Positions 1,597-22,717 of a stretch of DNA of 32,000 nucleotides are shown one piece after another. The position numbers were made by a program, and so were the translations under genes. Numbering within the stretch: position 1 is the first letter of the stretch; each line of letters starts with the position of its first letter. The notes under the pieces are model-generated. The model saw only the letters and a list, made by a program, of their open reading frames with translations, had not been told where the DNA came from and made no database searches. Origin of the DNA: Archaeoglobus fulgidus DSM 4304 (GTDB lineage Archaea > Halobacteriota > Archaeoglobi > Archaeoglobales > Archaeoglobaceae); assembly GCF_000008665.1 (NCBI RefSeq), contig NC_000917.1:1740001-1772000 (forward strand), given 5' to 3'.

Positions 1597-1683
1597 GGTT
1601 GTTTTTTGCTCATGCTCTTTAAAAATCAAGCGATTCGGTGTATGATGATAGTGTATGATGGTACTCACAATAATCTGAAGGAT

Positions 1684-1695
1684 AAAATTTATAAG
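1684..1695 (+). promoter_or_regulatory. TATA-like box for island cassette 1
   Basis: AAAATTTATAAG in an AT-rich spacer about 65 nt upstream of ATG 1759. It closely resembles AAATTTTATAAAG (5744..5756), placed about 60 nt upstream of the paralogous gene. Confidence 0.4.
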
Positions 1696-1782
1696 TAAAA
1701 AAATTTTACTAAAATAAAAATTGAGGATAGCTTGCTGTTCTCAACTAAGGGTGGTTGAATGAGGTAGTTAATTCCGTTAACC

Positions 1783-2352
1783 TTGCTGGTATTAGTTATG
1801 GCCACAGCCTCAGCCGACACCCTATGCAGTCAGCAGGAAGATGAGAGCTGGGGAAACCTGATGCTGCACGGCTTTCAGGTTGAAGCCTACAAGCCCGTTA
1901 GGGTTGGCGATAAGGTTTGCTACTCCTTCTATCTGAAGAACACAGGCAGCAGCGATGTAACGCTGGGGAAAAAGGGAGTCTACCTCCACACCAACGACGG
2001 CGATTTGAGCAGTAACTCAGGAGCTACCATCAGCCCGGGGAAGTCCATTTTTGTGAAAGACTGCTTTATAGCCTCATCATCTGGAGAGTGGACAACCTAT
2101 CCGGGCGTATGCATAATCACTGCCAAAGGAGAGTTCTGCCACAACTTCGAGACATCATGCACCTTTGACGTCTTCATCGAGTGCCCAGAAAACTGGAACT
2201 GCATGACTGCCGAAGATGCTTCTCAGGGCAACTATATTCGCTACTCTGACGAGCTTTGCGGTTACACCATCACCGGCTTCACAGCAATGAACAAGGTCCG
2301 ATGTACTGCTACAGAGAAGCTTCTGAATGCCCTGCAGGCACTCGGTGTGTAA
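1783..2352 (+). CDS. ORF fragment 1 of 3 of the disrupted protease gene (truncated signal peptide, N-terminal sandwich, first Cys module)
   Basis: TTG-initiated ORF from the track. DTLCSQQEDESWGNLMLHGFQVEAYKPVRVGDKV..TSCTFDVFIECPENWNCMTAEDASQGNYIRYSDELCGYTITGFTAMNK aligns with the first ~185 aa of 5815..9081. Its last ~17 codons (VRCTATEKLLNALQALGV) are out-of-frame read-through. Confidence 0.6.
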   Translation: MLVLVMATASADTLCSQQEDESWGNLMLHGFQVEAYKPVRVGDKVCYSFYLKNTGSSDVTLGKKGVYLHTNDGDLSSNSGATISPGKSIFVKDCFIASSSGEWTTYPGVCIITAKGEFCHNFETSCTFDVFIECPENWNCMTAEDASQGNYIRYSDELCGYTITGFTAMNKVRCTATEKLLNALQALGV

Positions 2353-3947
2353 CTCAGGGAGAAGCTGAGAAAAACGGGATGATTCCAACAGGGATTTTCT
2401 GTGATTACCAGAATGGGCAGGAGATGTACTGCTACTCCGAAGGAAAGCCTGATTTAGTCATAAGCGACGTCTGGGCTTACAACACCACTCCCGGAGTTTA
2501 CTCCGAGCTTAGAGCTCTCGTTTACAACCACGGGCATGGTTATGCAGGAAAGTTCAGCGTTGCCTTTTTCATTGATGGCAGCTACGTTGGAGAGGTTGAG
2601 GTTAACGGTCTTGGTGCCAACGAGAACACGGTTGCAAGGATCAGCTACCCCCATCCATGTGAGGGAGAGACAGACACCTTTGCTGCTCAGGTTGACTACC
2701 ACAATGAAGTGGATGAAGAAAATGAGAACGACAACTACCACGAAAGCCCCCGCATCTTCCAGTGCAGTGGGGGAGAGATGCCCAACTTAGAAGTTGTTGA
2801 GGCTTATATTGACTATCAGGACTTCTGCAGAGCCCTCAACTACAGAAACAGCTCCATTGTCGTTGTCGTTGCAAACACGGGAGAGCAGGCATCTCCTCAA
2901 ACGGGCGGATGGATTTACATTGACGGTAATTCGAGAGGAGGCTTTGACATCCCCTCACTCCAGCCGGGTGAAGAAACCACCATCTCGATGAACTTCCCGT
3001 ATATGTGTGAGGGGAGCAGCGACGAGATCAGGGTTGTGGTTGACAGCAGAAACTACGTGGTTGAGAGCAATGAGAACGACAATGAGTATACATTCATAAC
3101 AGACTGCATACCAATGCCCTCAGGAACTGCTGATCTGGTGGTGAGCTATTTAGAGACACATGTTGTTGAGGAACTTCTGGCTGGTGGGCTGAGCTACCCC
3201 CTGAAGTCGGAAATAAACTACACCGTAGAGAATCTCGGAGAGGATTACTCCTGCAACGCAGAAGTGGGGCTGTTTATAGATGGCGTTTTTCAGGGTCAGC
3301 AATACCTTCCACCACTGGCTCCGGGAGACTCAATCACGAGGACTTTTATTGCGAAATACGACTGGGAGAGGTGCAGCGGAATAAGTGACACGCTGACTTT
3401 GAAGGCTGACGTCAACAACGACGTGGCCGAGTCAAATGAGAACAACAACGAGAGGAGCGTTACGCTCTACTGCATTGAATATCCCCTGATTAAGCCTGAC
3501 CTCACGGTGGAAGACGTGTGGATTGAAGGAGAGGGGGCATCCAACTTGGACATAGTTTTCACGGTCAAAAACATCGGCTTGGCTGCAAGCAGAGCGACAA
3601 ATGCGTATGTTGGGGTGAACTACAACCCCGCAGGAAGCACTCCCATCCCTCCACTCAACGCTGGAGAGAGTGTTGAACTCAGAATTTCAGGATTCACCGC
3701 CCAGTGGCAGGAGAACACCATTGAGGTGTGTGCGGACAGCGGAAATCTTGTTGATGAGATTCCCAATGAGATGAACAACTGCCTGACCAAAACGATTACC
3801 ATCGAGGACGTTGGTTGCTATGATGGAGTGAGGAACAGAGATGAGGTCGGTGTGGATTGTGGCGGATATTACTGTGTTCCTGCGGCTTTGTTGAGGTTAA
3901 AGGGAGATTGCTCTATCAGGATGACGATGGCAGCTGGCTTCCAGTGA
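2256..3947 (+). CDS. ORF fragment 2 of 3 (second Cys module, four CARDB-type domains, Cys linker)
   Basis: From ~2298 it reads PMYCYREASECPAGTRCVTQGEAEKNGMIPTGIFCDYQNGQEMYCYSEGKPDLVISDVW... There are four sandwich units, each starting with x-[PA]-[DN]-L-x-V and ending in Asn/acid-rich motifs (ENENDNYHE, ESNENDNEY, ESNENNNER, IPNEMNNC), as in CARDB domains. The first ~14 and last ~21 codons are out of frame relative to the paralogue. Confidence 0.6.
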   Translation: MRLHHHRLHSNEQGPMYCYREASECPAGTRCVTQGEAEKNGMIPTGIFCDYQNGQEMYCYSEGKPDLVISDVWAYNTTPGVYSELRALVYNHGHGYAGKFSVAFFIDGSYVGEVEVNGLGANENTVARISYPHPCEGETDTFAAQVDYHNEVDEENENDNYHESPRIFQCSGGEMPNLEVVEAYIDYQDFCRALNYRNSSIVVVVANTGEQASPQTGGWIYIDGNSRGGFDIPSLQPGEETTISMNFPYMCEGSSDEIRVVVDSRNYVVESNENDNEYTFITDCIPMPSGTADLVVSYLETHVVEELLAGGLSYPLKSEINYTVENLGEDYSCNAEVGLFIDGVFQGQQYLPPLAPGDSITRTFIAKYDWERCSGISDTLTLKADVNNDVAESNENNNERSVTLYCIEYPLIKPDLTVEDVWIEGEGASNLDIVFTVKNIGLAASRATNAYVGVNYNPAGSTPIPPLNAGESVELRISGFTAQWQENTIEVCADSGNLVDEIPNEMNNCLTKTITIEDVGCYDGVRNRDEVGVDCGGYYCVPAALLRLKGDCSIRMTMAAGFQ

Positions 3948-4981
3948 AGCTGACGAAGATCAGAACTGAAGGAGACTTTAACTGGGGGCCATTTCTGACC
4001 GACAGCGATGGTTACTTCACCATTCCAATCCCAGACAGCCAAGCAGGCAAGAAATTCAGGATCAGGATTGAGCCATGGGATATAAACTACGCTGCAAGAA
4101 TTGCAAGGGATCTGGATCGGTGCAACGAGTACGTGTGGTTCCTTTCGGACGAGATTACTGTGCCAGATCACGGAAGGCTGGATCTGGGTGAGCTAAGGAT
4201 AGGTAAAGATGCCAACTACGACTTCACTGCCTACTGGCAGGAAAAGAGGCACACCTGCCTTTTCGGTCTCTGCGCCTGTGGGGGTTCGGTACATGTAATT
4301 CAGGGAGGGTCAGTTTATCTGAACATTGCCGACGCCCTGCTTGCAGCCAGAGCCTATGCGGACCTTCACAGGAGCGACGATGACGGTATAGGAAGAGTGG
4401 ACGTTCAGTATCCTGACAGCGACTGGAGCAACTACGACCAAACCTGGGATGAGATAACGCTTACAACGAATCACGGATTTTTGGATGGAGTTGCCATCCA
4501 CGAGTACGGGCACTTCCTCGAAGACCACATAAGCGAGGAAGACATATATGTTGGTAACACTTCCCACACCTTCTGCGACGACAAGGACGATACGGAATTT
4601 GCGTGGAGTGAAGGGTTTGCAGAATACTACGGGACTTTCATAGTGGCAATAAACGACCACCTCTCGCATCCGGACATAAGTTTCGGTACAATCGAGAATC
4701 CGGGTTGCAGCAAATTTGATGACGATATAGAAGCCACAGTTGCCGCAGTTCTCTGGGACATGGTTGACAACAGCAGCTTTCCAGACTACAATGCAAGCGA
4801 ATCATTCGATACGGTTGGAGGGCTCGACGATGTTATCTTCAAGATGTTCGACAGTGAGCTCGACCACTGGCACGATGCTCCTGACCTATGTGAAATGCAT
4901 GGCAATCTCGACCATCGGCTTGATTCAACTACGTTGAACAAAGTGGAGCGGATTTTTGAGCATTACAATGCGTGCAGGTGA
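3857..4981 (+). CDS. ORF fragment 3 of 3 (small beta-sandwich plus HExxH zinc-protease domain)
   Basis: From ~3881 it reads CGFVEVKGRLLYQDDDGSWLPVKLTKIRTEGDFNWGPFLTDSDGYFTIPIPDSQAGKKFRIRIEP.., then ..FLDGVAIHEYGHFLEDH.. (HEYGH at 4499..4513) and ..TEFAWSEGFAEYYG.. (Glu at 4610..4612). This gives HExxH plus a downstream Glu-containing helix, a gluzincin-like arrangement. Confidence 0.6.
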   Translation: MWRILLCSCGFVEVKGRLLYQDDDGSWLPVKLTKIRTEGDFNWGPFLTDSDGYFTIPIPDSQAGKKFRIRIEPWDINYAARIARDLDRCNEYVWFLSDEITVPDHGRLDLGELRIGKDANYDFTAYWQEKRHTCLFGLCACGGSVHVIQGGSVYLNIADALLAARAYADLHRSDDDGIGRVDVQYPDSDWSNYDQTWDEITLTTNHGFLDGVAIHEYGHFLEDHISEEDIYVGNTSHTFCDDKDDTEFAWSEGFAEYYGTFIVAINDHLSHPDISFGTIENPGCSKFDDDIEATVAAVLWDMVDNSSFPDYNASESFDTVGGLDDVIFKMFDSELDHWHDAPDLCEMHGNLDHRLDSTTLNKVERIFEHYNACR

Positions 4982-4985
4982 TAGT

Positions 4986-5678
4986 ATGAGGTGGATACTG
5001 CTTGTTTTGGTGATTCTGCTGGCCTCTTCAATCCCCCTCTGCTCACAGCCGGGCCAACCTGAGAGTGGACAGGAGAGCCAGCCAGCTGCAACCCTCTACA
5101 ACGTTACGCTTGACAGCGGCTACTTTGATAAGCTAAAGGGGGTCATTGAGGGGGATACAACGCCAAAGGAGAAGGAGAAGGCAATACTGGAAATGGCGCA
5201 GATTGCAGTTATGCTCAACGACAGTGATAGGGCCATTGAATATCTGAAAGAGGTTGCAAGCACCTCCAAAGACCAGAATGTGGTTGCTGCTGCATATGCA
5301 GCTATAGATCTGATTAGGGATTACTATCCGCCCGAAGTGCTTGGAGAGCTTGCAGTTGACGTCGAAGGAGACCTCAAACCCGGCTCGACGGTGAATATTA
5401 CCGCAACCGTCAAGGCTTACTCCGACTGCGAGGGTATGGTCGGGATAAAAAGAGGGGTGCCGGAGGGAATGGAGCTTAAATCAAATATCCGCTATAAGTT
5501 CGAGATTTCCGCAGAGGAGACTAAGAAATTCACCTTTGTTGTAAAACCAGAGCAGAGCGATGAGTATGCATTGACCATTGCTCTATTCCTCGAAAAGAGT
5601 AGATTTGACTACCAGCAGGTGGAGCAGGAAATTGTGCTGAGAGTTGACGAGAGTGGAGGAGAAGTTGTTTACTATTAA
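4986..5678 (+). CDS. Secreted hypothetical protein, small partner of cassette 1
   Basis: ATG 4986 lies 4 nt after the upstream stop, and the last upstream codons supply AGGTGA as SD. MRWILLVLVILLASSIPLCS is a Sec-type signal peptide. It is followed by a Q/P/E/S-rich linker (QPGQPESGQESQPAA), a helical middle part, and a C-terminal region with a sandwich-like pattern (DLKPGSTVNITATVKA..VPEGMELK..KFEISAEETKKFTFVVKPEQSDEYALT). The track start 4956 overlaps the upstream gene and adds non-signal residues. Confidence 0.7.
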   Translation: MRWILLVLVILLASSIPLCSQPGQPESGQESQPAATLYNVTLDSGYFDKLKGVIEGDTTPKEKEKAILEMAQIAVMLNDSDRAIEYLKEVASTSKDQNVVAAAYAAIDLIRDYYPPEVLGELAVDVEGDLKPGSTVNITATVKAYSDCEGMVGIKRGVPEGMELKSNIRYKFEISAEETKKFTFVVKPEQSDEYALTIALFLEKSRFDYQQVEQEIVLRVDESGGEVVYY

Positions 5679-5680
5679 TC

Positions 5681-5694
5681 TTTTATTTATTTTT
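5681..5694 (+). terminator. Oligo-T tract after cassette 1
   Basis: TTTTATTTATTTTT begins 2 nt after the TAA at 5676..5678. Archaeal terminators are typically T-runs. Confidence 0.4.
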
Positions 5695-5743
5695 ATCAAT
5701 GTATTAAAGTCAATGTGACTGTGTTAATGAGGGTTTTAAAGGC

Positions 5744-5756
5744 AAATTTTATAAAG
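5744..5756 (+). promoter_or_regulatory. TATA-like box for island cassette 2
   Basis: AAATTTTATAAAG about 60 nt upstream of ATG 5815. The downstream leader (CTGTTCTGACCATCGGTGGTTTGATG) is homologous to the leader of the disrupted paralogue (CTGTTCTCAACTAAGGGTGGTTGAATG). Confidence 0.45.
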
Positions 5757-5814
5757 TAATTCATCCCTTAAAAACTGTTGGAACGGCCCGACTGTTCTGA
5801 CCATCGGTGGTTTG

Positions 5815-8800
5815 ATGAAAAACTTGCTCAAAGCCTTGGTCATTTGCACCCTCATTTTCGCCTCAGTCGCCTCAGCCTCTGCTTCGCCCGTCTGCCAGCA
5901 GGAGAGAGAGGAGATCTGGAACTCTCTGCAGCTTTACGGCTTTTTGGTGGAGTCGAATCAGCCTGTCAAGGTCGGTGACACAGTTACCTACAAGTTCAAC
6001 CTCAGAAACACGGGAAAGGAGCCTGTAACCATCGGATTTGGTGGGGCTTACCTCAAGAGTAGCGATGGACAAATTTACAGATTTCACGCAAAAGAGGTGA
6101 TTGAGCCATCAGGAGCATTGACCGTCAGCTCAACGTTTGTTGCTGAGAACACCGGCCAGCTTTCCGTATCTCCCGGAGCGTGCATTTCTACATCTAAGGG
6201 CGACATCTGCCACGATTTCAGCAGCTGCACCTTCGACGTCTTCTTCGAGTGCCCTGCGGGGTGGAGCTGCATGGCTGCGGAGGAGGCTTCCGGGAGCTAC
6301 GTCAGGTATTCGGAAGAGGTTTGCGGATACAGCGTTTCCGGCTTGGCGGCAATGGTAAAGACGCCGAAGTACTGCTTCAGAGAGGTTCAGAGCTGTCCGG
6401 AAGGATGTGAGTGCCTGACCAAATCTGAGGCGGAGAAGCTGAAAATGGACCCGTGCGGAAAAATATTCTGCGGATACGAGAATGGACAGGAAAAATACTG
6501 CTACCGGCGTGGAGCTCCTGACTTTGAGGTTTTAAGCGTGGAAGTGGAGAGAAGCGAGGACTGCGAAAGGCTGGACTACAGGGAGAGCCCTGTCACATTT
6601 AAGGTGAGGAATTCCGGGGATGGGGCGAGCCCTACAGCGGAAGGGGAGCTTTACATTGACGGAACACTCCTTCAGACCTTCAGCATTCCACCCCTCCAGC
6701 CGGGAGAGGAAGAGCTGTTCAGCTTCAATTTTCAGGTCCTTTGTAGCAGAGAAAAGGACACAATCCGAGTTGTTGCGGACTCACAGAATACAGTTTTAGA
6801 ATCCACAGAGAGCAACAACGAGGTGGAAGTTGAGTTATCCTGCCTTCCGTCTTCTGAGGGGGCGGATTTAACTGTCGTGAGGGTATGGAACGAGTCCTAC
6901 AACAACGAGCTGAGAGTTTACTACGAAATCAAAAACACGGGATATGGATATGCCTGCAGCTCTCAGGCGGGGCTTTTCGTTGATGGGGAGCTATTTGCAG
7001 TGGACGATGTCGGGCCTTTAAGTCCGAAAGAATCGAGAGAGGAGGCTTTCTACAGGAGATACAGCATTGAAAGTTGCACGGGCAACGTTTTCGAGGTCGT
7101 GGCGGATGTTGATGACAGCGTTTTAGAGCTTGATGAGGGTAACAACGCCTTCAGTGTTGTCTGGCTGTGCAGAGATTTTGTTCAGCAAAAGCCCGACCTT
7201 CAGGTGGGGGCGGTCTGGACTGAGGGGACGGGTAATTCAGACCTGACACTCCACATCCCGCTGCAGAACTTCGGCAAGGCGGAAAGCCCCCAGACCGAGG
7301 TGGTTGTTTATGAGAACGGGCAGCAGGTTGCAACTCTTCAGGTGTCATCCATTTCTCCGGGCGGGATAGAGACATACAGGCTTCTCCACTGGTCACCGCA
7401 GAGCAGTTCAACAACCATAACCGTTTGCATTGATGTCCAAAACGACGTGGATGAGGAAAGGGAGGACAACAACTGTGCCAGCAGGATACTTACCTTCACC
7501 TCCACCTGCAGCGATGGTGTGCAGAACGGGGATGAGGAAGGGATTGATTGCGGAGGGAGCTGTCTGCCATGCAACAGGTGCGACATGGCATCGCTGCCAT
7601 CTCGATTCGACTGGAGAGACTACACGGGACTTTCCGCTGTCAGGGATCAGGGGAGCTGCGGGTCTTGCTGGGCACATTCTGCCGTCGCAGCTCTGGAATC
7701 TGCACTCATTGTCGAATCGGGTGCAAGCTCAAGCATAGACCTCTCCGAGCAGCACCTTCTGAGCTGCGAGCAGGACTGTGAGGTGGGAATTGGTGACTGG
7801 TGCTGGGCGAGCAGCGGAGATTGTGATGGTGGCTGGCCCCACAAGGCTCTCAACTTCATCATAAACAACGGCGTTCCGGATGAGTCATGCTTTCCCTACA
7901 CCGCAACCAACGGGAACTGCGGGAGTAAGTGCGGTGACTGGGAGGACAGGACAGAGGGGGCAGTTTACAGGGGGAAGGTCAGCAGTAACGTTGAAGCCCT
8001 GAAAAGAGCCCTGATATGCCACGGACCCCTCTCGGTGGCTTCGGAGAACTGGGAGCACGCATTGCTTCTCGTAGGTTACGATGACCTGAGCACCATCTGC
8101 ACGCAGAAATACGGGAAATCAGGATGCTGGATACTCAAGAACAGCTGGGGAGTTTTCAGCGGTTTTTCGCATGACGTATGGCACGAGTATGGCTACGCCT
8201 ACATCCCATATTCGGGCTTTAAATACAGCGACATCAAAAACGGGGCCTACTACGTTATTCCATCGGACTACACTCTTCATGCCGACTTCGAGATGATGGA
8301 CGGCCTCGCTGCTGGGGATCTGGACGGAGACGGTATGGCTGAGATCGTGCACGCTGACAGAGGAGACCTGCTGCAGATTTTCAACCTTGGAGGGTTGCAG
8401 AGCAGTGAGCAGATGGATTTTGAAGAGGGAGACAGAATAGCCACTGGAGACGTGGATGGGGACGGAAGGATGGATGTCATACACGCCGACAGAGGGGATG
8501 AAGTTAGCATCCACTTCCAACCACCCGTTGGGGTTGTCAGCAGCTTTTACCTCGACTTCGAGGAGGGCGATGACATCGCAGCCGGAGACGTCAACGGAGA
8601 TGGCGTTGATGAGATTGTGCATGCAGACAGAGGGGATTTGATAAGTGTTCTCGGTGCCAGCGGCAATCAGGTTGCGAGCTTCCAGCTGAACTTCGAAGAG
8701 GGAGACAGAATCTGCGTTGGAGACGTTAATGGTGACGGAAAAGATGAGATAGTGCATGGAGACAGAGGTGACTGGGTGAGGGTTTACGACATGTATGGGA

Positions 8801-9081
8801 CAAAGCTGAGTGAGTTCCAGCTTGACTTCGAGCAGGGAGATGCGCTGCAATGCGGTGATTTGAATGGCGACGGCGTTGATGAGATTGTGCATGGAGACAG
8901 GGACGACTGGGTGAGGGTTTACAACATGCACGGTGCATTGCTGGGTGAGATGCGCTTTAACTTTGAATTCGGGGATGGGTTTGCTGTGGCTGATTTCAAC
9001 GGAGATGGTAAGGATGATATCATTCACGGAGACAGGGGAGATTCCTTCCACGTTGTAAAGGGAGAGAGGTGGTTTGAATGA
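5815..9081 (+). CDS. Secreted modular cysteine protease. Domain order: signal peptide, N-terminal sandwich, 2 Cys-rich modules, 3 CARDB-type domains, Cys linker, papain-like (C1) peptidase domain, 6 FG-GAP/VCBS-type repeats
   Basis: ATG 5815 sits behind a GGTGG SD (the track start TTG 5812 is one codon upstream). MKNLLKALVICTLIFASVASASA is the signal peptide. Numbering from 5812: sandwich aa 26-145; Cys modules aa 147-231; CARDB-type units aa 236-345, 350-453 and 460-562 (..ESTESNNEVEV, ..LDEGNNAFSV, ..EEREDNNCAS); linker CSDGVQNGDEEGIDCGGSCLPC. The C1 domain reads LPSRFDWRD..RDQGSCGSCWAHSAV (Gln 7648..7650, Cys 7666..7668)..NWEHALLLVGYD (His 8056..8058)..WILKNSWG (Asn 8140..8142). Six ~45-aa Ca-binding-type repeats follow. 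Confidence 0.9.
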   Translation: MKNLLKALVICTLIFASVASASASPVCQQEREEIWNSLQLYGFLVESNQPVKVGDTVTYKFNLRNTGKEPVTIGFGGAYLKSSDGQIYRFHAKEVIEPSGALTVSSTFVAENTGQLSVSPGACISTSKGDICHDFSSCTFDVFFECPAGWSCMAAEEASGSYVRYSEEVCGYSVSGLAAMVKTPKYCFREVQSCPEGCECLTKSEAEKLKMDPCGKIFCGYENGQEKYCYRRGAPDFEVLSVEVERSEDCERLDYRESPVTFKVRNSGDGASPTAEGELYIDGTLLQTFSIPPLQPGEEELFSFNFQVLCSREKDTIRVVADSQNTVLESTESNNEVEVELSCLPSSEGADLTVVRVWNESYNNELRVYYEIKNTGYGYACSSQAGLFVDGELFAVDDVGPLSPKESREEAFYRRYSIESCTGNVFEVVADVDDSVLELDEGNNAFSVVWLCRDFVQQKPDLQVGAVWTEGTGNSDLTLHIPLQNFGKAESPQTEVVVYENGQQVATLQVSSISPGGIETYRLLHWSPQSSSTTITVCIDVQNDVDEEREDNNCASRILTFTSTCSDGVQNGDEEGIDCGGSCLPCNRCDMASLPSRFDWRDYTGLSAVRDQGSCGSCWAHSAVAALESALIVESGASSSIDLSEQHLLSCEQDCEVGIGDWCWASSGDCDGGWPHKALNFIINNGVPDESCFPYTATNGNCGSKCGDWEDRTEGAVYRGKVSSNVEALKRALICHGPLSVASENWEHALLLVGYDDLSTICTQKYGKSGCWILKNSWGVFSGFSHDVWHEYGYAYIPYSGFKYSDIKNGAYYVIPSDYTLHADFEMMDGLAAGDLDGDGMAEIVHADRGDLLQIFNLGGLQSSEQMDFEEGDRIATGDVDGDGRMDVIHADRGDEVSIHFQPPVGVVSSFYLDFEEGDDIAAGDVNGDGVDEIVHADRGDLISVLGASGNQVASFQLNFEEGDRICVGDVNGDGKDEIVHGDRGDWVRVYDMYGTKLSEFQLDFEQGDALQCGDLNGDGVDEIVHGDRDDWVRVYNMHGALLGEMRFNFEFGDGFAVADFNGDGKDDIIHGDRGDSFHVVKGERWFE
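8287..9078 (+). repeat. Six tandem ~45-codon FG-GAP/VCBS-type repeats (coding)
   Basis: [FL]-x-F-E-x-G-D-x-x-x-x-G-D-[VLF]-[DN]-G-D-G-x-[DA]-[ED]-I-[VI]-H-[AG]-D-R-[GD]-D recurs with the G-D start at aa 835, 879, 925, 970, 1015 and 1060 (spacing 44-46 aa, about 135 nt). This periodicity also creates the long antisense shadow ORF 8119..9051. Confidence 0.85.
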
Positions 9082-9716
9082 GGAGGGTTTTGCTCTGCTT
9101 TCTCACTCTAATCCTGCTGCTCCCAGCAGCCTCAGCCCTCAGAAATCCCTCTGCAGTCTACTGTGAGGCCATGGGCTATAATTACGTAATCTTCTCCTCC
9201 CCCTACGGTGACGTTGGCAAATGCGTCCTGCCCAACGGTGAAGCTGTGAATGCGTGGGACTTCTACAGGGGAGTGGTTGCGCTGGAATACAGCTACTGTG
9301 CAAAGCAGGGCTACGAGGCGAAGCATGTGGAGAGAGAGGACTGCAAGAGCTGCCTTGTTTGTGTTTTGCCAGACGGAAGGGAGGTGGAGGTTGCTGAGCT
9401 CATGGGCCTGAGCTTTGAGGAGACAACGTGTGGGGATGGAGTTTGCGGGATTCCTGAAAATTACTCATCCTGCCCTCAGGATTGCAGTTCCGGGGAGGAG
9501 GATGGATACTGTGATGCAGTAAAGGATGGTATTTGCGACCCTGACTGCACGAAGGGTGAAGATGCTGACTGTGCTGAGAATTTAGAGGGGGGTGCAACAA
9601 CAGTTACAGCCACCACAATTACTCCAAGCGAGGTGAAGAGAACTCCGGGGTTTGAGGCGCTGGAAGTGCTTGCAGCTTTAGCCTTGGTTCTTGCAGTGAG
9701 CAGAAGAAGGATTTAA
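9078..9716 (+). CDS. Secreted DUF333-like / Cys-rich protein with PGF-CTERM anchor signal, small partner of cassette 2
   Basis: ATG 9078 overlaps the upstream TGA (ATGA, 9078..9081), with a GAGGTGG SD 5 nt upstream. MRRVLLCFLTLILLLPAASA is the signal peptide. NPSAVYCEAMGYNYV..GKCVLPNGEAVNAWDFYRG fits the DUF333 pattern and is followed by a second, degenerate half (YCAKQGYEAK..CLVCVLPDGREVEVAELMG). Next come a Cys-rich segment (CGDGVCGIPENYSSCPQDCSS..YCDAVKDGICDPDCTKGEDADC) and a Thr-rich linker. The C-terminal TPGFEALEVLAALALVLAVSRRRI is a PGF motif (9645..9653) plus hydrophobic helix plus basic tail. Confidence 0.85.
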   Translation: MRRVLLCFLTLILLLPAASALRNPSAVYCEAMGYNYVIFSSPYGDVGKCVLPNGEAVNAWDFYRGVVALEYSYCAKQGYEAKHVEREDCKSCLVCVLPDGREVEVAELMGLSFEETTCGDGVCGIPENYSSCPQDCSSGEEDGYCDAVKDGICDPDCTKGEDADCAENLEGGATTVTATTITPSEVKRTPGFEALEVLAALALVLAVSRRRI

Positions 9717-9717
9717 C

Positions 9718-9729
9718 TTTTCATTTTTT
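9718..9729 (+). terminator. Oligo-T tract after cassette 2
   Basis: TTTTCATTTTTT begins 1 nt after the TAA at 9714..9716. Confidence 0.4.
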
Positions 9730-9839
9730 AAAATCAGTGGACTTTTAACAAGTTCACACGTTCCGAAGTTCGAAAATCATACTTTAGACTTCCCTAAACC
9801 TCCAATTTTCCATTAAAAGCCCACAAAACTTTTCGAAAC

Positions 9840-9849
9840 CTATTTAAAG
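9840..9849 (+). promoter_or_regulatory. TATA-like box for island cassette 3 (leaderless-type spacing)
   Basis: CTATTTAAAG ends about 20 nt upstream of ATG 9869. No SD is visible, consistent with a leaderless or near-leaderless transcript. Confidence 0.45.
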
Positions 9850-9868
9850 AAAAAGTTAAAAATTTTTC

Positions 9869-12319
9869 ATGCGAATTGGTGTTCTTGTAGCGGGCCTTTT
9901 TGGAGTCCTGCTTCTTGCTGCAATGGTGCAGGCCCAGTGCCCTGAGGGCTGCGCCTGCCTTGACAAGGCGACAGCTGAAAAGTACGGGCTGAGCAAGCTC
10001 TGCTCGGATAAGCCATGCGGTGAAACAACCAAGGGGGAGCCCAAATACTGCTTCCAGACCTACACCTGTCCCGATAACTGCTATTGCCTGACCGAAGAGG
10101 AGGCGAAGGCTGAGGGATTGACCACGTGCGGAGACCAGATGATGGTTTGCGGGGAAAAGGAAGGGAAGCTCCTTTACTGCTTCTCCAAACCTGTCTGTCC
10201 TGAGGGATGCGTTTGTTTAACCAAGGAGGATGCGGAGAAGAAGGGATACACGGAGCTTTGCAGCGATGATGTTTGCGACTACACCATCTCACAAACCCCG
10301 ACAGCAGTGGTAAAGGTTCCGATGTACTGCTGGAAGGCTGTTCCTACAACAACCACCACTACCACCACAACCACTCCAGCAACCTGCCCTGACAACTGCA
10401 ACTGCCTGACAGAGGAGGAGGCGAAGGAAAAGTTTACCTGCCCAACTCTTTGTGGCGATGCGATTTGCGGTTACGATGAGAAAACTCCGAAGTACTGCTT
10501 CAGGGACAACTGCACTGCAAATGTTTCCTGCCCCTTCGGATGCGAGTGCCTGACGGATGAGGAGGCAAAAGAAAAGGGCTACACAGAGCCCTGCGGAGAT
10601 TATGAGTGCGGTCTCATCGGGGATAATGTGGTAAAGCACTGCTATAAGAAGCCCTACGAGTGCCCTGAGGGCTGCAAGTGCCTCACTGACGAGGAGGTAA
10701 GGAAATATCTGGAGGAGGGGTATGTAGTTGAAAAGTGCGGCGAGGAAAAGTGCAGCGAAAAGGGAATGTGCTACAAAATCTCCTCCCCCACCTGCCCTGC
10801 TGGCTGCGAATGCCTGAGCGATGAGGAGGTGAAGAAGTACGAGTCCTCTGGTATAAAGCTCGAGCGCTGCACTTCCCAGCCATGCGGTGATGGCAAGTAC
10901 TGCTACAGGAAGGTTGAGGAAATCTGCCCAGCTGGATGTGAGTGCCTCTCCAAGGAGGAGGGGTATGCAAAGGGCATGGAGTTCTGTCAGGACTCTGCAG
11001 GAAACCTGATAAGGTGTGGTGTAATCGATGCTGAGCATGGAGTTTACAAGTACTGCTTCAGAGAGGCCGAAAAGTGTCACTTTGACAGAGCAAAATCTGT
11101 CTGCACGGGCTACTGCGAGAGTGGAGAGTGCGAGTTCTCGGCAGATTACCAGCTTTGCGTCGAAGATTGCAAGATGAAGTACGAGGAGTGCCTGAAGGGC
11201 GACGTTCCTGAGGAGGAGTGCAAGAAAGTCTATGAAGAGTGCTGGAGTGGCTGCAAACCATCCTGTGAGTGTAAGCCCATAACCTGCCCTGCAGGCTGCG
11301 AATGTCTCAACGAGGAGACGGTTAAGAAGTACCAGTCTGCAGGCTACACAGTTGAGCGCTGTGCTGCCGAAACCTGCCTTGCTGGAAACTACTGCTACAG
11401 AGTCACGCCTCAAAAGTGCCACTTTGACTACGAGAAGGAGCAGTGCGTTGGCGGTTGCGACGTCGGGCAGTGCAATCTAAACACCATTGTAAGAGACCCG
11501 AAGACGGGCAAGGTGGTTTACGGAGAGTGCGCCTGCAAGCCCGTGAACATCTGCCCAGCAGGATGCGAGTGTATGCCGAAAGAAAAGGCAGAGGAGGTAT
11601 TCAGCAACCCACAAGCATGCAATCCAAATCCGTGTGCCGTTGAGAAGGTGAAAGACGAGAGAACAGGAGAGGAATGGGAGGTTTACTCCTACTGCTTCAG
11701 GGAAGGTGAGCAGGCCTGCCACTACGACAGGGAGAGCGGAAAGTGTGTTGGAGGATGCGAGAGGGGAGAGTGCACACTGATGAGAGACTCCTACGGAAAT
11801 CCCTTCTGCAGCTGTCTTACCAAGATAACCCAGACAGTCCTCGAAACCAGCGTTGTTGAAAGAGCTTTACCACCCGAAGCTTCCCCGCTGACCTGCATTC
11901 CAGTCAAGCTCTACGTGAAACCAGCTTCGGGAGTTACGGGGATGATAATAACTGAAAACTACCCACAACAGTTCAGATTCGCATCACCATCCATCGCACC
12001 ATCCTCATACGGAAATGGAACGGCGAAGTGGCTGCTTATGGACAAGAACGGGCTGAAAGAGCAGGAGATTGAGTATAAGCTTTGCCTGCCAAGAAATGCG
12101 GCTGGAGAGTACTACTTCAACGGCATCTGGGAGACTGACACCAATGCGGGAACCATTGTGGGGGATACCAGCATAAAAGTCATGCCATCCAGGACGAACT
12201 GGCCGCCGTGTCCTGTTACCGACAGCATGCTGCTCAACTACATCACCCAGTGGTCTGAGGGCAAGCTCTCCGACCTTGAGCTTCTGCAGGTTGTTGAAGT
12301 GTGGGATAAGGGGTGCTGA
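9869..12319 (+). CDS. Secreted cysteine-rich repeat protein (816 aa): 10 CPxGCxC modules, 3 CHxD modules, poly-Thr linker, C-terminal beta-sandwich-like domain and tandem LLxxIxxW helices
   Basis: MRIGVLVAGLFGVLLLAAMVQA is the signal peptide, and the mature protein starts QCPEGCACL... CPxxCxC modules start at aa 24, 67, 110, 173, 221, 265, 309, 353, 473 and 562; CH[FY]D modules start at aa 403, 517 and 617. By hand count there are 90 Cys. A run of ten Thr lies at 10346..10375. The C-terminal ~140 aa (..GMIITENYPQQFRFASPS..GTAKWLL..EIEYKL..GEYYFNGIW..GDTSIKV) resembles the product of 12322..12810. The protein ends ..VTDSMLLNYITQWSEGKLSDLELLQVVEVWDKGC. Confidence 0.9.
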   Translation: MRIGVLVAGLFGVLLLAAMVQAQCPEGCACLDKATAEKYGLSKLCSDKPCGETTKGEPKYCFQTYTCPDNCYCLTEEEAKAEGLTTCGDQMMVCGEKEGKLLYCFSKPVCPEGCVCLTKEDAEKKGYTELCSDDVCDYTISQTPTAVVKVPMYCWKAVPTTTTTTTTTTPATCPDNCNCLTEEEAKEKFTCPTLCGDAICGYDEKTPKYCFRDNCTANVSCPFGCECLTDEEAKEKGYTEPCGDYECGLIGDNVVKHCYKKPYECPEGCKCLTDEEVRKYLEEGYVVEKCGEEKCSEKGMCYKISSPTCPAGCECLSDEEVKKYESSGIKLERCTSQPCGDGKYCYRKVEEICPAGCECLSKEEGYAKGMEFCQDSAGNLIRCGVIDAEHGVYKYCFREAEKCHFDRAKSVCTGYCESGECEFSADYQLCVEDCKMKYEECLKGDVPEEECKKVYEECWSGCKPSCECKPITCPAGCECLNEETVKKYQSAGYTVERCAAETCLAGNYCYRVTPQKCHFDYEKEQCVGGCDVGQCNLNTIVRDPKTGKVVYGECACKPVNICPAGCECMPKEKAEEVFSNPQACNPNPCAVEKVKDERTGEEWEVYSYCFREGEQACHYDRESGKCVGGCERGECTLMRDSYGNPFCSCLTKITQTVLETSVVERALPPEASPLTCIPVKLYVKPASGVTGMIITENYPQQFRFASPSIAPSSYGNGTAKWLLMDKNGLKEQEIEYKLCLPRNAAGEYYFNGIWETDTNAGTIVGDTSIKVMPSRTNWPPCPVTDSMLLNYITQWSEGKLSDLELLQVVEVWDKGC
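9938..11815 (+). repeat. Array of Cys-rich coding modules (10 x ~43-aa CPxGCxC type, 3 x CHxD type)
   Basis: Each module opens with recurrent DNA of the type TGCCC[TA]G[AC]NGG[CA]TG[CT]GA[GA]TG[CT]CT (for example at 9938, 10661, 10793, 10925, 11285, 11552). The divergent intervening sequence shows old, diverged duplications rather than recent ones. Confidence 0.85.
10346..10375 (+). repeat. Poly-threonine linker (10 consecutive Thr codons, mixed ACA/ACC/ACT)
   Basis: ACA ACA ACC ACC ACT ACC ACC ACA ACC ACT lies between module 3 and module 4. It is a likely flexible, possibly O-glycosylated spacer (inference). Confidence 0.8.
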
Positions 12320-12321
12320 GG

Positions 12322-12810
12322 ATGAGAGCTTTGTGGTTGGCATTGGTGCTGCTGATTCTTTCAATCCCCGCCGTTTCAGCTCAGATCACGGTTACAAGAG
12401 ATTTGCCAGATTCGGCTAAGGTTGGAGACGAAATCACCGTCACTCTTGCCCTTACTATTGGCAGCGAGAAGCCGGCAGGAGCAATAATTGAAGAGAGCAT
12501 TCCCGATGGTGCAAGCTACATCTCAAGCAGTCCTGAAGCGACAGTGAGTGAGGGGAAGCTGAAGTGGGCTTTTTATGGTGAGCAGCTAAAGGACATGACT
12601 TTGCAGTACACCGTTAAGGTCGAGAAGGCTGGAAAGCTGGAATTCAGCGGCACGGTAAAGACCCTGCTCGGAAACGAGAACATAGGTGGTGACAGCGAGC
12701 TTGAAGTTTCTGAGAAGTCCGCAGAGCAACCCAAGGGTACGCCCGGATTTGAGGCATTCGTAGCTGTGGCTGTAATAGGCTCAATAGCTCTGTTGAGAAG
12801 GAAACATTAA
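12322..12810 (+). CDS. Secreted beta-sandwich protein with PGF-CTERM anchor signal, small partner of cassette 3
   Basis: ATG 12322 lies 2 nt after the upstream TGA; the alternative GTG 12313 overlaps it by 7 nt. MRALWLALVLLILSIPAVSA is the signal peptide. The sandwich-like body reads ITVTRDLPDSAKVGDEITVTLAL..GAIIEESIPDGASYISSSP..GKLKWAF..LQYTVKVEKAGKLEFSGTV. The C-terminal GTPGFEAFVAVAVIGSIALLRRKH is a PGF motif (12742..12750) plus helix plus basic tail. Confidence 0.85.
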   Translation: MRALWLALVLLILSIPAVSAQITVTRDLPDSAKVGDEITVTLALTIGSEKPAGAIIEESIPDGASYISSSPEATVSEGKLKWAFYGEQLKDMTLQYTVKVEKAGKLEFSGTVKTLLGNENIGGDSELEVSEKSAEQPKGTPGFEAFVAVAVIGSIALLRRKH

Positions 12811-12822
12811 ATTCTATTTTTT
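12811..12822 (+). terminator. Oligo-T tract after cassette 3
   Basis: ATTCTATTTTTT directly after the TAA at 12808..12810. Confidence 0.4.
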
Positions 12823-12864
12823 ACAACACAAAAACCTATTTTTACCACCCGGCCAATTTAAGGC

Positions 12865-13191
12865 ATGGAACTGCAGTTCGACGAGAAGGGCCTAATCCCC
12901 GTCATCACTCAGGATGTTAAAACGAAGGAGGTTTTGATGTTAGCCTACGCCAATGAAGAAGCCATTAAGCTCACCCTCAAAACAGGTTTCGCTCACTACT
13001 GGAGCAGGAGCAGAAAGAAGCTCTGGAAAAAGGGAGAAACTTCAGGAAATGTCCAGAGAGTGGTTGAAATCAGATACGACTGTGATTGTGATGCTCTGCT
13101 TTATTTGGTAGAGCAGAAGGGTAATGCCTGCCATACGGGCAATTACTCATGCTTCTACAGGAGGTTGGAAGGAGATGAAGTACGTTGTTGA
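12865..13191 (+). CDS. hisI: Phosphoribosyl-AMP cyclohydrolase (monofunctional HisI)
   Basis: [98 protein letters not shown] carries the PRA-CH signature (SRSR..LW.KGE.SG..Q....I..DCD.D.LL..V.Q.G.ACHTG..SCF). Confidence 0.93.
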
Positions 13192-14944
13192 TACCAGTGT
13201 GGTTATATCAGGAAGAGTAACCGAAATGCTTGAAAGTGGGGAGATTAAAGGAACGATAATAGTTCCTGAAGCCGTAATGGCGGAGCTTGAAGCTCAGGCC
13301 AACTTTGGCAAGATGACAGGCTTTCAGGGGCTCAGCGAAATCGAGAAGCTTACGAAGCTCGCAAAGGATAAGGGATTTGAGGTCATTTTTGCGGGGGAGA
13401 GGCCAAAGCTTGAGCACATCAGACTTGCAAAGGGAGGGGAGATAGACAATCTGATAAGGGAAGTTGCTGCCGAGTTCGATGCTGTTCTCGTAACCTCCGA
13501 CAGGGTTCAGCACTTGGTGGCGAGGGCAAAGGGCATAGAAACCATCTACGTCAGGCCTAGGGTTGTAAGACCCGAAAACACCCGAATAATGTCCTTCTTC
13601 ACCCCCGACACGGCGAGCGTGCATCTGAGGGAGGGTGTGCCTCCCTACGCCAAGAGAGGGAGAATTGGAGACCTGAAGCTCGTAAAGCTCGATGACAGGC
13701 CGATGAGCTACGAAGAGCTTAACGAGATTGCCAACGAGATTCTGGAGGCTGCGAGGCAGGACGAGGACAGCAGCATCGAGATCGAGAGGAGAGGTGCAAC
13801 AGTGGTTCAGCTCAGGGAACTCAGAATTGCCATTGCAGAGAGACCCTTTGCGGACAGGATGGAGATTACAGCAGTGAGGCCGATAGCTCAGGTCTCAATT
13901 GATGAATATGGAGTTAGCGAGGAGCTGAAGCGCAGAATAGTGGAGAGGCAGAGGGGAATTCTCATATCCGGCCCGCCCGGAGCGGGAAAGTCAACCTTCG
14001 CGGCGAGTGTGGCAAACTTCCTGCTTGAGAACGGATACATTGTCAAAACAATGGAGAGTCCAAGAGATTTGATGGTGAGAGATGAAATTACTCAGTATGC
14101 GCCGCTTGAGGGGGACATGTCCCTGACTTCGGACATCCTTCTTCTGGTAAGGCCTGATTATACAATCTACGACGAGCTCAGGAGAACGTCAGACTTTCAG
14201 GTTTTCGCGGATATGCGTTTAGCTGGGGTTGGAATGATCGGAGTAACACACGCCACAAGGGCGGTTGACGCGATACAGAGAATGATAGGCAGGGTGGAGC
14301 TCGGAATGATTCCACAGGTTGTTGACACGGTTGTTTTCATCGATGCTGGCAGAATAGTGAAGGTTTACGAGCTTTCCTTTACCGTCAAAGTGCCAACAGG
14401 GATGACGGAAGCTGATCTGGCGAGACCTGTTATAGAGGTCAGGGACTTTGAGACCAAGAATCTTGAATACGAGATCTACACCTACGGAGAGCAGGTTGTG
14501 GTGATGCCCATTGAGACAGACGAAAACCTGAAGGCTGCGCTGGAGGAGAAGATTTCCAAGTACGTTGACGACTTCGAGGTGGAGATGGTTGGAAGAAAAG
14601 CGGTGATAAAGGTTCCTGAGAAGCACATTCCCACGCTGATAGGAAGAAAGGGGAGGAGGATAAAGAATATCGAGGACGAGTTCAAAATTTCAATCGACGT
14701 CATTCCTAAGGAAGTTGAAGAGGAGGTAGAGGCGAGTGTGGAGGAGAGCGGAAAGCACTACGTCATCCACGCAAAGGGGCTTGAGGGCAGGACTGTGGAC
14801 GTCTATGCGGGGGATGAGTACCTGTTCACGGCTTTGGTGAGCAGGAAGGGGTGGATACGGATCAGGAAGGATAAGGAGGGTGGGAAGAGCTTGAGGCTCG
14901 CTCTGGCTAAGAACCTGCCGATAAGGCTGAAGGTGGTAGGTTGA
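13175..14944 (+). CDS. PIN domain + PilT-like ATPase + KH domain protein (archaeal COG1855-type)
   Basis: ATG 13175 sits behind GGAGG/AAGGAG. The PIN-type N-terminus reads [22 protein letters not shown]. It has a Walker [10 protein letters not shown], a PilT/VirB11-like core, and a C-terminal KH-like [19 protein letters not shown]. The track start 13124 lies inside hisI. The gene overlaps hisI by 17 nt. Confidence 0.85.
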
Positions 14945-15714
14945 GATACCTCTTCGGCTTGCTTTTTCTTCTCACCGCCTTACTCGCTTTAGCAGCGATG
15001 CCGAAGTATGAAGAGGCGGGAATGGTCGTTTTCGAGAACCCTTCGGATGTTTCAAACTCCTTACTTTACTTCGGCCTGATTATTGGATTTACGGCCTTCA
15101 TTCTCCTCGCCGTGAAATTCTCTGCCGTTCTGAAGGCGGTGATATACTTCCTCACCTTTCTGTCAATCTTCTACGTCCTTTCTCCCTTCATAGGGATTCT
15201 GGCAATCCCCCTTTCCATCGGAGTTGTAATTCTGCTAATCAAAAAGCCCTACTGGCTGGTCATCAACTTCTCCGCCCTGATGCTTGCCGCTGGAATTACA
15301 GCAATCTTCGGCATAAGCCTCGAGCCGCTGCCAGTGATAATCTTGCTCGCAGTTCTTGCAGCCTACGATGCAATCTCGGTTTACAGAACGAGGCACATGA
15401 TAAAGCTCGCCGAATCCGTCACAGCGATAAACGCTCCTATGCTCTTCATCATTCCGCGGAAGGACGGAAACGCCTATATGGGAGTTGGGGATGCAGTTAT
15501 GCCCAATATCCTCGTAGTTTCCGCCCAGTACTTCTCGAATTCTCCATCAGTCGGTTTCATCAAGCTTCCTGCTCTTTTTGCTCTCATCGGAGGTTTTGCC
15601 GGGCTTATGATTTTGCTCTACATCGTGGAGAAGCGTGGAGGGGCGCATCCCGGCTTGCCCTTCGTCAACTTCGGTGCGATTGCGGGATACATCCTTGGTT
15701 CGGTCTTGTTTTAG
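14941..15714 (+). CDS. Presenilin / signal-peptide-peptidase homologue (intramembrane aspartyl protease, A22-like)
   Basis: Polytopic membrane protein carrying the three family motifs: YD (LAAYDAISVY), GxGD (YMGVGDAVMP) and PAL (IKLPALFAL). TTG 14941 overlaps the upstream TGA (TTGA), with GAAGGTGG 5 nt upstream. Confidence 0.8.
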   Translation: MRYLFGLLFLLTALLALAAMPKYEEAGMVVFENPSDVSNSLLYFGLIIGFTAFILLAVKFSAVLKAVIYFLTFLSIFYVLSPFIGILAIPLSIGVVILLIKKPYWLVINFSALMLAAGITAIFGISLEPLPVIILLAVLAAYDAISVYRTRHMIKLAESVTAINAPMLFIIPRKDGNAYMGVGDAVMPNILVVSAQYFSNSPSVGFIKLPALFALIGGFAGLMILLYIVEKRGGAHPGLPFVNFGAIAGYILGSVLF

Positions 15715-21957: not shown

Positions 21958-21961
21958 ATCC

Positions 21962-22717
21962 ATGATAGCGGCAGGCATCGATATCGGGTCTTTAACTGCA
22001 AAATGCGCCCTGATGAGGGACGGAAAGCTGATAGCCTACAAGGTCATAAAGGTCTCCCCCAATCTGGAGGAAACGGCAGAGAGGGTTTTTCAGGAAACGC
22101 TTAAGGCTGCAGGAATAGGGAGGGAGGAGGTGGAAAGGATTGTCGCAACGGGCTACGGGAGAAACAAGGTCGGATTTGCGGACAAGAAGGTGACGGAGAT
22201 AAGCTGCCACGCAAGGGGGGCGATTTACTTCATTCCAACAGCGAGAACTGTTGTGGACATTGGAGGGCAGGACAGCAAGGTGATTGCCATCGAGAACGGA
22301 AAGGTTGCCGAGTTCGTGATGAACGACAAGTGCGCTGCTGGAACGGGAAGATTCCTTGAAGTCATGGCCGCAGCGCTGAATCTAAAAGTGGAGGAGCTTG
22401 GGGACGTGGCTGAAAGAGCTACCAAAGCCACGAAAATCTCCTCAACATGCACGGTGTTTGCCGAGTCGGAGGTTATCAGCCATCTCGCCTCAGGGGAAAA
22501 GGTTGAGGACATAGTTGCTGGGATACACGAGGCGATAGCGTCGAGAATTGCGGCAATGGCCAGGAGAGTTAAAATAGAGCCGGACATCGTTTTAACCGGA
22601 GGGGTTGCGAAAAACAAGGCGATGAAGAAGGCCCTCGAAAAGGAGTTCGGGATGGAGGTTAAAACACCTCCCGAGCCGCAGATTGTTGGTGCTGTGGGGG
22701 CTGCTCTGCTCGCCTAA
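21962..22717 (+). CDS. CoA-substrate-specific enzyme activase (HgdC/BcrAD/BadFG-type ATPase)
   Basis: MIAAGIDIGSLTAKCAL (ASKHA phosphate-1), ..VVDIGGQDSKVI.., and the two cluster-ligand contexts NDKCAAGTGRFLE and SSTCTVFAESEV, then ..LTGGVAKN... ATG 21962 sits behind AGGTGA. The track start 21917 lies inside the upstream gene. Confidence 0.88.
   Translation: MIAAGIDIGSLTAKCALMRDGKLIAYKVIKVSPNLEETAERVFQETLKAAGIGREEVERIVATGYGRNKVGFADKKVTEISCHARGAIYFIPTARTVVDIGGQDSKVIAIENGKVAEFVMNDKCAAGTGRFLEVMAAALNLKVEELGDVAERATKATKISSTCTVFAESEVISHLASGEKVEDIVAGIHEAIASRIAAMARRVKIEPDIVLTGGVAKNKAMKKALEKEFGMEVKTPPEPQIVGAVGAALLA

Follow-up and report, generated by a model that had tools for sequence, protein, structure and literature searches.

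Three pairs of large and small secreted-protein genes between purS and hisI of Archaeoglobus fulgidus: candidate cassettes for holding large proteins at the cell surface

The AF_1944 to AF_1949 gene cluster

The window analysed here, a stretch of 32,000 nucleotides (nt) of the Archaeoglobus fulgidus DSM 4304 genome, carries a cluster of six genes, which an exact-sequence look-up identified as AF_1944 to AF_1949. The cluster is built of three units, each of which pairs a large gene for an exported multidomain protein with a small gene directly behind it. Five of the six genes are intact, and the exception, the large gene of unit 1, is a pseudogene. The strongest result of the analysis concerns unit 2, in which the gene of a C1 cysteine peptidase is followed by that of a protein with two DUF333 repeats, an arrangement that is kept across distant phyla. 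The explanation that appears probable is that the units are three independent, vertically conserved two-gene cassettes, which are adjacent by chance in A. fulgidus, and that the small anchored protein of each most likely binds the large one and holds it at the surface.

A preliminary description, made from the DNA sequence, had placed the cluster between purS and hisI and had given each unit its own signals. Both flanking genes and the five intact plus-strand open reading frames (ORFs) lie on the ORF map exactly where that description had them (Table 1). One TATA-like box per unit and T-tracts behind every unit are likewise found; the oligo-T tracts probably act as terminators, to judge by their likeness to archaeal oligo-T terminators. 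The junctions between large and small genes are +4 nt (unit 1), -4 nt (unit 2) and +2 nt (unit 3), within the range of -4 to +4 nt given earlier, and the Shine-Dalgarno-like strings AGGTGA, GAGGTGG and GGGGTG/GAGG precede the small genes. Because the junctions are short or overlapping, translational coupling is suggested, and the two genes of a unit may well be co-transcribed. Each large gene is closely trailed by its small partner not only here: all three pairings are kept in other genomes that have different neighbours.

The leaders of five of the gene products, all but that of the unit-1 large gene, have by eye the classical layout of a basic segment, a hydrophobic segment and A-x-A. The large proteins have no membrane anchor, as had been noted, and all three small partners look membrane-anchored. 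Two of them, AF_1947 and AF_1949, have PGF-CTERM-type ends (TPGFE, a hydrophobic stretch and RRR/RRK), and AF_1945 has an N-terminal hydrophobic segment. Recent horizontal acquisition of the cluster finds no support, since its GC content (0.47-0.55) is similar to that of the flanks and the window has no tRNA.

The claim that the set is undescribed stands in part. Some of its members are already annotated, AF_1946 as "cysteine proteinase, putative" and AF_1947 as "DUF333 domain-containing / putative hemolysin"; AF_1948 is a hypothetical protein. The literature searched held nothing on the AF_1944-AF_1949 genes, and two of the three pairings, which recur widely in other microbes, appear to be undescribed.

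Table 1. Features of the cluster and its borders, in window coordinates; the TATA-like boxes were read straight from the sequence
Feature	Position	Strand	Description
purS	1354-1668	minus	Flank of the cluster
TATA-like box AAATTTATAAG	1685..1695	+	Upstream of unit 1; putative promoter
Unit-1 large gene remnant (includes AF_1944)	1759..4981	+	Pseudogene; AF_1944 fragment, 3857-4981
AF_1945	4986..5678	+	Small partner of unit 1: N-terminal hydrophobic leader/anchor, four-helix TPR-like region, MG/CARDB-like β-sandwich
Oligo-T tracts	5681..5694	+	After unit 1
TATA-like box TTTATAAAG	5748..5756	+	Upstream of unit 2
AF_1946	5815..9081	+	Unit 2: putative signal peptide, DUF11-like sandwich, 2 Cys modules, three CARDB (about 6517-7540), Cys knot, Peptidase_C1 (7594-8253), FG-GAP (8317-9078)
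AF_1947	9078..9716	+	Unit 2: putative signal peptide, two DUF333 repeats, Cys/Asp-rich module, Thr-rich linker, putative PGF-CTERM (from 9642)
Oligo-T tracts	9718..9729	+	After unit 2
TATA-like box TATTTAAAG	9841..9849	+	28 nt before the AF_1948 ATG
AF_1948	9869..12319	+	Unit 3: putative signal peptide, 10 CPxGCxC modules (~44 aa), 3 CHxD...C modules, poly-Thr tract, DUF11-like sandwich (11855-12214), duplicated DxxLLxxIxxW tail (12215-12316)
AF_1949	12322..12810	+	Unit 3: putative signal peptide, 'TVTRDLP' DUF11-like sandwich, putative PGF-CTERM (from 12739)
Oligo-T tracts	12817..12843	+	After unit 3
hisI	12865-13191		Flank of the cluster

The C1 peptidase AF_1946 and the DUF333 protein AF_1947

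AF_1946 matches Peptidase_C1 (PF00112) over residues 594-813 with 130.6 bits against a cut-off of 20.7 (E=1e-37), and has the full papain catalytic set of Gln, Cys, His and Asn in the motifs QGSCGSCW, HALLLVGY and KNSWG. Its three CARDB domains (PF07705; E=2e-66, 220.8 bits) are above the gathering score and its FG-GAP region is matched at E=1e-13. Together with the HExxH domain of unit 1, the peptidase provides the proteolytic component that the preliminary description had proposed. The I29 propeptide (PF08246) is typical of the C1 family and not obligatory in it. A Pfam scan of 11 C1 proteins, AF_1946 and 10 peptidases that likewise have a DUF333 partner, detected it in none.

The start codon of AF_1947 overlaps the stop codon of AF_1946 (ATGA). 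The protein matches DUF333 (PF03891) in two repeats with 86 bits against a cut-off of 25 (E=2e-24). Its C-terminus has no match at E<=0.01 to the PGF-CTERM hidden Markov models (HMMs) PF18204 and TIGR04126, though the TPGFE, the helix and the RRR motif are readable; an orthologue in a related locus (L019) scores 29.3 with TIGR04126 PGF_CTERM, above the cut-off.

The genomic context of DUF333 was scanned in species-representative genomes with a narrower DUF333 alignment, a 71-sequence alignment being too diverse. The 24 loci returned come from Archaeoglobi, Aenigmatarchaeota, Altiarchaeota, Woesearchaeota, Pacearchaeota, Methanomicrobiaceae, Woeseiaceae and Dehalococcoidales. A same-strand Peptidase_C1 gene lies directly upstream of the DUF333 gene in 20 of the 24; three of the four negative loci have less than 160 nt of upstream sequence, hence the proportion is 20 of 21 evaluable loci. 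The two are separate ORFs, with -34 to +61 nt between the end of the C1 gene and the start of the DUF333 gene. Almost every DUF333 protein that is complete at its C-terminus combines a signal peptide with a transmembrane segment or PGF anchor at that end. Independent context look-ups agree with this adjacency.

Such constancy bears on the proposal that the large and small genes are only co-transcribed and that their secreted products make no direct contact, the DUF333 and sandwich proteins being, for example, independent adhesins or substrates under shared regulation. The proposal can appeal to the fact that binding between the partners is inferred, and DUF333 proteins are common as stand-alone bacterial lipoproteins. 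It is nevertheless quite improbable, given that the adjacency is found in distant phyla and is accompanied by natural fusions of the two domains; the order of the genes in relatives of unit 3, described below, argues against it as well.

The accessory domains of the partnered peptidases vary: CARDB, TSP_3 with LamG/pentraxin, PKD, or none, as in the 251-aa C1 protein of Altiarchaeota. The FG-GAP propeller is restricted to Archaeoglobi. Because these domains differ, DUF333 has no constant partner other than the catalytic domain. P0196 and P0197 are natural fusions in which two DUF333 repeats stand directly N-terminal to the LPxxFDWR start of the C1 domain, that is, in the position of a propeptide. 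A bacterial DUF333-C1 fusion (Eisenbacteria, L064 750-5827) stands within a run of secreted-protease genes, which includes those of a Peptidase_C10 protein and of an FTP-propeptide protein.

The position of DUF333 in the fusions, the lack of I29 in the 11 scanned proteins and the catalytic domain as sole common part of the peptidases would also fit small partners that are cognate inhibitors, immunity or maturation factors and not tethers. Membrane-bound DUF333 would then shield the surface of the producer, and AF_1945 would do likewise for the HExxH protease. The Altiarchaeota peptidases, which seem to have a lipoprotein-type leader of their own and so need no tether, fit too, and the genes of proteases and their inhibitors are often paired, as in staphopain-staphostatin and AprA-AprI. 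This explanation is nevertheless unlikely. AF_1947 resembles no known inhibitor family or fold: compared with known cysteine-peptidase inhibitor families (e.g. chagasin I42), it has only DUF333 in Pfam and no fold match. Unit 3 has the same large/small layout without a protease domain. The explanation also overlaps with that of tethering and differs from it only in denying the tether. The preferred reading is that AF_1947 most likely binds the catalytic domain of AF_1946 as a membrane tether, and that it probably serves in addition as a propeptide-like chaperone or latency factor, which acts in trans and replaces the absent I29.

DUF333 is a domain of unknown function that is often labelled "putative hemolysin", and the literature searched contained no link of DUF333 (PF03891, COG3042) to a function, the single apparent match being to DUF3335. 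Its near-obligate pairing with propeptide-less C1 peptidases gives the domain a first testable role, and points to a possible means by which these peptidases fold, are held latent or stay at the surface.

Two further observations were made on unit 2. A small Cys knot, CxDGxxNxDExGxDCGGxxCxPC, which was matched to no family, stands directly before the catalytic domain both in AF_1946 (window 7540-7600) and in unit 1 (3800-3885), and also precedes the C1 domain in L017, L019, L022 and L038. A 310-aa ORF on the minus strand (window 8119-9051) runs antisense to the FG-GAP region of AF_1946; it has no sign of being a gene and is most likely a by-product of repeat composition.

The Cys-repeat protein AF_1948 and the anchored sandwich AF_1949

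AF_1948 has no match to a Pfam or NCBIfam family. The preliminary description had seen a CPxGCxC module in all three large genes, and this is indeed the case: there are 10 copies in AF_1948, with a periodicity of 129-144 nt, and two copies each, partly degenerate, in the large genes of units 1 and 2. The module is rare. Only 58 proteins with it were found at E<=1e-3 when 1.84 billion representatives were searched in full with HMMER. Among the 49 of these that were scanned against Pfam, it occurs alongside Big_1, Invasin_D3 and PKD domains, and alongside Peptidase_C1 in five. These domains beside it mark it as a rare extracellular spacer or adhesive module.

The number of modules varies within the species. 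Two DNA copies of the Cys module in AF_1948 (window 10064-10427) are 85% identical and lie 318 nt apart, and in other A. fulgidus strains and metagenome-assembled genomes (MAGs) AF_1948 has 710 aa: exactly 106 aa (318 nt) are missing, the poly-Thr tract among them. The spacing of the repeats and the size of the missing segment indicate copy-number variation by recombination between the repeats.

AF_1949 and the C-terminal sandwich of AF_1948 are paralogues (BLASTP E=4e-6, 28% identity over 122 aa), which agrees with the likeness between the two that had been read earlier. In AF_1948 the sandwich is followed by a duplicated tail, VTDSMLLNYITQWSEGKLSDLELLQVVEVWDKGC. AF_1949 itself matches DUF11 near threshold (E=2.5e-4), and its putative PGF-CTERM scores 18.3 against a cut-off of 18.8 with Pfam PF18204 and 18.7 against 24.5 with TIGR04126.

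Orthologues of AF_1949, 55-61% identical, stand directly after AF_1948 homologues with gaps of 3-10 nt in other Archaeoglobales, in different neighbourhoods. The distant members of the family found in a metagenome scan consist of a signal peptide, an xTVTRDLP sandwich, a linker and a membrane anchor. In L048, L049, L050 and L054/L057, the ORF directly upstream of such an anchored sandwich ends in the same duplicated D-x-x-L-L-x-x-I-x-x-W tail. The order of tail and anchored sandwich is found in about seven contexts. It is kept despite a reversal of size: L050 has a tail protein of 139 aa in front of an anchored protein of 1221 aa. This survival of the order is a further argument against mere co-transcription of proteins that do not touch. 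Some of the tails contain an EF-hand-like loop, GDTNGDNQVSDFELL; the tail of AF_1948 has no Ca-binding loop. The sole strong PDB match of the tail profile, a designed repeat protein, was rejected as an artefact.

The duplicated tail of AF_1948 most likely docks on the sandwich of AF_1949, in the manner of a dockerin on a cohesin, and would thus display the array of Cys repeats. If this is true, tail/sandwich pairs add a second, non-cohesin route of non-covalent surface display in archaea.

The decayed large gene of unit 1 and AF_1945

The large gene of unit 1 had been described as a gene at 1759-4981 whose product begins with a signal peptide, but it is not intact. It is a decaying pseudogene in A. 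fulgidus: codon 3 is a TAG (1765-1767), and the frame shifts near 2296-2299 and again near 3878, so that the listed leader cannot be translated in that form. Recoding of the TAG was considered and rejected, the gene being frameshifted as well; Archaeoglobus is not known to have a pyrrolysine system. The annotation is corrected accordingly: AF_1944 and the ORFs upstream of it are pieces of one decayed protease gene.

The metagenome contigs L012 and L013 are otherwise identical to the window over 1600-5000 and differ only by one extra C at 3878. They have the TAG at codon 3 and the first frameshift in common with the window, and the lesion at 3878 is therefore strain- or assembly-specific. Samples L014 and L016 carry the same frameshifted 345/374-aa ORF as the window at this position. 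Either the strains truly differ in this C, or its absence is an old assembly error that was passed on through resequencing. In other A. fulgidus strains, the called protein begins directly past the first frameshift. An intact orthologue of 1071 aa is found in a more distant relative (L010), and in L010/L011 this intact gene and its small partner are kept at +5 nt. In the MAG of another Archaeoglobus sp. (L008, 4372-7609), the large gene is split into 253 + 764 + 45 aa with breakpoints unlike those of A. fulgidus, either by independent decay or by errors of MAG assembly.

The ancestral protein comprised a signal peptide, a DUF11-like sandwich, two Cys modules, four CARDB domains, a small Cys knot and an HExxH...EGFAEY domain. 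Its N-terminal ~180 residues, that is, the DUF11-like sandwich and the two Cys modules after it, are 48% identical to those of AF_1946. The CARDB domains (PF07705; E=1e-94, 311.6 bits) are above the gathering score, so that the CARDB sandwiches read earlier in units 1 and 2 are both Pfam matches, with four and three copies. In the C-terminal domain, HEYGH...WSEGFAEY is invariant in four orthologues, a pattern typical of the gluzincins of clan MA(E); in searches of the PDB and Pfam, the similarity of the domain to M36 fungalysin (E=0.12-1.2) and M9 (E=0.39) is below threshold.

AF_1945 has no match to a Pfam or NCBIfam family, and its own family consists of only five clusters, all of them Archaeoglobus-like. 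A member is always found 4-5 nt past the CARDB/HExxH gene where that gene is intact. A looser sandwich pattern had been read in AF_1945. Its AlphaFold2 (AF2) model (pLDDT 84) shows, besides the hydrophobic segment at the N-terminus, four helices and an MG/CARDB-like sandwich; there is no significant similarity to AF_1949. The sandwich matches complement MG domains at E~1e-5, and the model matched only generic MG or Ig-like sandwiches. In distant orthologues of AF_1945, the N-terminal segment resembles an uncleaved anchor.

One apparatus or three pairs

The preliminary description had regarded the cluster as an island, a single system of three cassettes. Some features would suit one integrated surface apparatus with cooperating components: in A. 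fulgidus the genes are neighbours that lie on one strand, the large proteins share the Cys module, DUF11-like sandwiches and CARDB domains, and a close relative (L024) likewise has units 2 and 3 side by side. The comparison of gene order in related genomes, however, makes such an apparatus highly improbable. In L008/L009 (Archaeoglobus sp.), unit 1 is found without the other two, flanked by purS and a TIP49 gene. The Archaeoglobales MAG B5_G16 has unit 3 (L004) and unit 2 (L023) on different contigs, and unit 2 is found alone in L017, L019/L020 and L022. Only L024 keeps two of the units together. Each cassette has in addition its own TATA-like box and T-tracts, and of the large genes one has decayed and two are intact.

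Because the cassettes occur separately in related genomes, they are three independent pairs and not one system; the "island" is a lineage-specific juxtaposition of these.

Proposed retention at the surface

The mechanism proposed for the three pairs is as follows. Each cassette would produce two proteins: a large one, of several domains, that is exported by the Sec route and has no anchor, and a small extracytoplasmic one that is fixed to the membrane. The small partner most likely binds the large protein and keeps it on the cell surface. The same logic would apply to unit 1, with the CARDB/HExxH protease and the N-terminally anchored AF_1945, although the protease gene has decayed in A. fulgidus.

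Several findings weigh against this mechanism. The AF2 model of AF_1947 (pLDDT 88) gave nothing below E=0.39 in a Foldseek search of the PDB, and there is no PDB sequence match either, hence no inhibitor-like or adaptor-like neighbour. Some of the partnered C1 peptidases look anchored themselves, by a lipobox-like leader (the 251-aa proteins of Altiarchaeota) or by T4SS_pilin-like N-termini (L033, L036), so that tethering alone is not the role in every case. Because AF_1948 has a copy of the sandwich right beside its tail, binding of the tail could also be intramolecular. The pairing of unit 3 is not seen beside the distant Cys-repeat homologues in Methanoregula and Chloroflexi. The resemblance to cohesin and dockerin finds no backing in profile comparisons: the AF_1949 sandwich has no match to Pfam PF00963, and the hhalign probability of the sandwich family to a canonical Archaeoglobus cohesin is 11%; neither the AF_1948 tail nor related tails match Pfam PF00404, and the hhalign probability to dockerin is 1%. 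The calls of signal peptides and PGF-CTERM, finally, come from reading of the sequence and from near-threshold HMM scores.

A bolder form of the proposal, which is put forward as a tentative possibility, is that the cluster holds two new docking systems. In the first, tandem DUF333 would be a previously unrecognised, membrane-anchored analogue of a propeptide, acting in trans as tether, chaperone or inhibitor, for propeptide-less C1 peptidases of archaea and some bacteria. In the second, the tail and the TVTRDLP sandwich would provide surface display independent of cohesin and dockerin.

Neighbouring genes

A gene for a presenilin-type signal-peptide peptidase (PF06550, E=1e-51) lies 2 kb downstream of the cluster (window 14941-15714, plus strand), a proximity that may be coincidental. 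Between it and hisI lies the gene of an ATPase with PIN, T2SSE-like ATPase and KH domains (13124-14944, plus strand). Its longest ORF shares 68 nt with the end of hisI, and the product in the annotation of other strains is 17 aa shorter (589 aa). Further downstream (19796-22717, plus strand), two HGD-D genes (2-hydroxyacyl-CoA dehydratase D-component-like) are followed by that of a BcrAD/BadFG-type activator ATPase; these are unrelated to the secreted-protein pairs.

Comparison with known systems

PGF-CTERM and archaeosortase A anchor surface proteins of archaea, such as the haloarchaeal S-layer glycoprotein. AF_1947 and AF_1949 are like these proteins in ending in a Thr-rich linker, PGF, a hydrophobic helix and basic residues, and the AF_1947 orthologue in L019 passes TIGR04126; they differ in that their own HMM scores are below the cut-offs. 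Their ends would presumably be processed by an archaeosortase, of which no gene was found among the scanned ORFs of the window. In the tetrabrachion-STABLE complex of the hyperthermophilic archaeon Staphylothermus marinus, binding to another surface protein likewise keeps an extracellular protease on the cell. This protease is a subtilisin on a coiled-coil stalk, and the protein families are unrelated.

In the C1 zymogens with an N-terminal I29, the propeptide would be the counterpart of the small protein of unit 2. AF_1946 has a true C1 domain, as they have, and in the fusions two DUF333 repeats take the place of the propeptide. In contrast to the zymogens, the scans of AF_1946 and 10 partnered peptidases gave no I29, and the candidate propeptide analogue is a separate, anchored product with an unrelated, uncharacterised fold. 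Protease/inhibitor operons (staphopain-staphostatin, serralysin AprA-AprI, chagasin I42) share with the cluster the order of a protease gene and a small partner gene. The partners described here, however, appear to be exported and membrane-anchored and are not similar to the I42, staphostatin or Inh families.

Unit 3 resembles cohesin-dockerin pairs in that a secreted protein with a short duplicated helical C-terminal module is encoded beside a small anchored β-sandwich protein. The canonical Archaeoglobus cohesin in L017 is built as AF_1949 is, with 176 aa made up of a signal peptide, a sandwich and a PGF-CTERM, and the EF-hand-like loop in the tails of some relatives of AF_1948 adds to the likeness. 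The unit-3 sandwich differs in being DUF11-like, and the AF_1948 tail in having no Ca-binding loop. The likeness is one of analogy and not of family membership. The canonical trio in L017 (11695-14614), 4 kb from that relative's unit-2 locus, consists of the genes of a Tricorn_N/cohesin/dockerin protein, the 176-aa PGF-CTERM cohesin and a 194-aa dockerin protein. A non-cellulosomal A. fulgidus cohesin-dockerin pair has been used in designer cellulosomes (PMC6394049, PMC9705933), and thermostable docking pairs such as those proposed here would be of similar practical interest.

Cohesin-dockerin display, papain zymogens and protease/inhibitor operons are thus the closest analogues of the pairs in the cluster, and the correspondence with each of them would be one of function.

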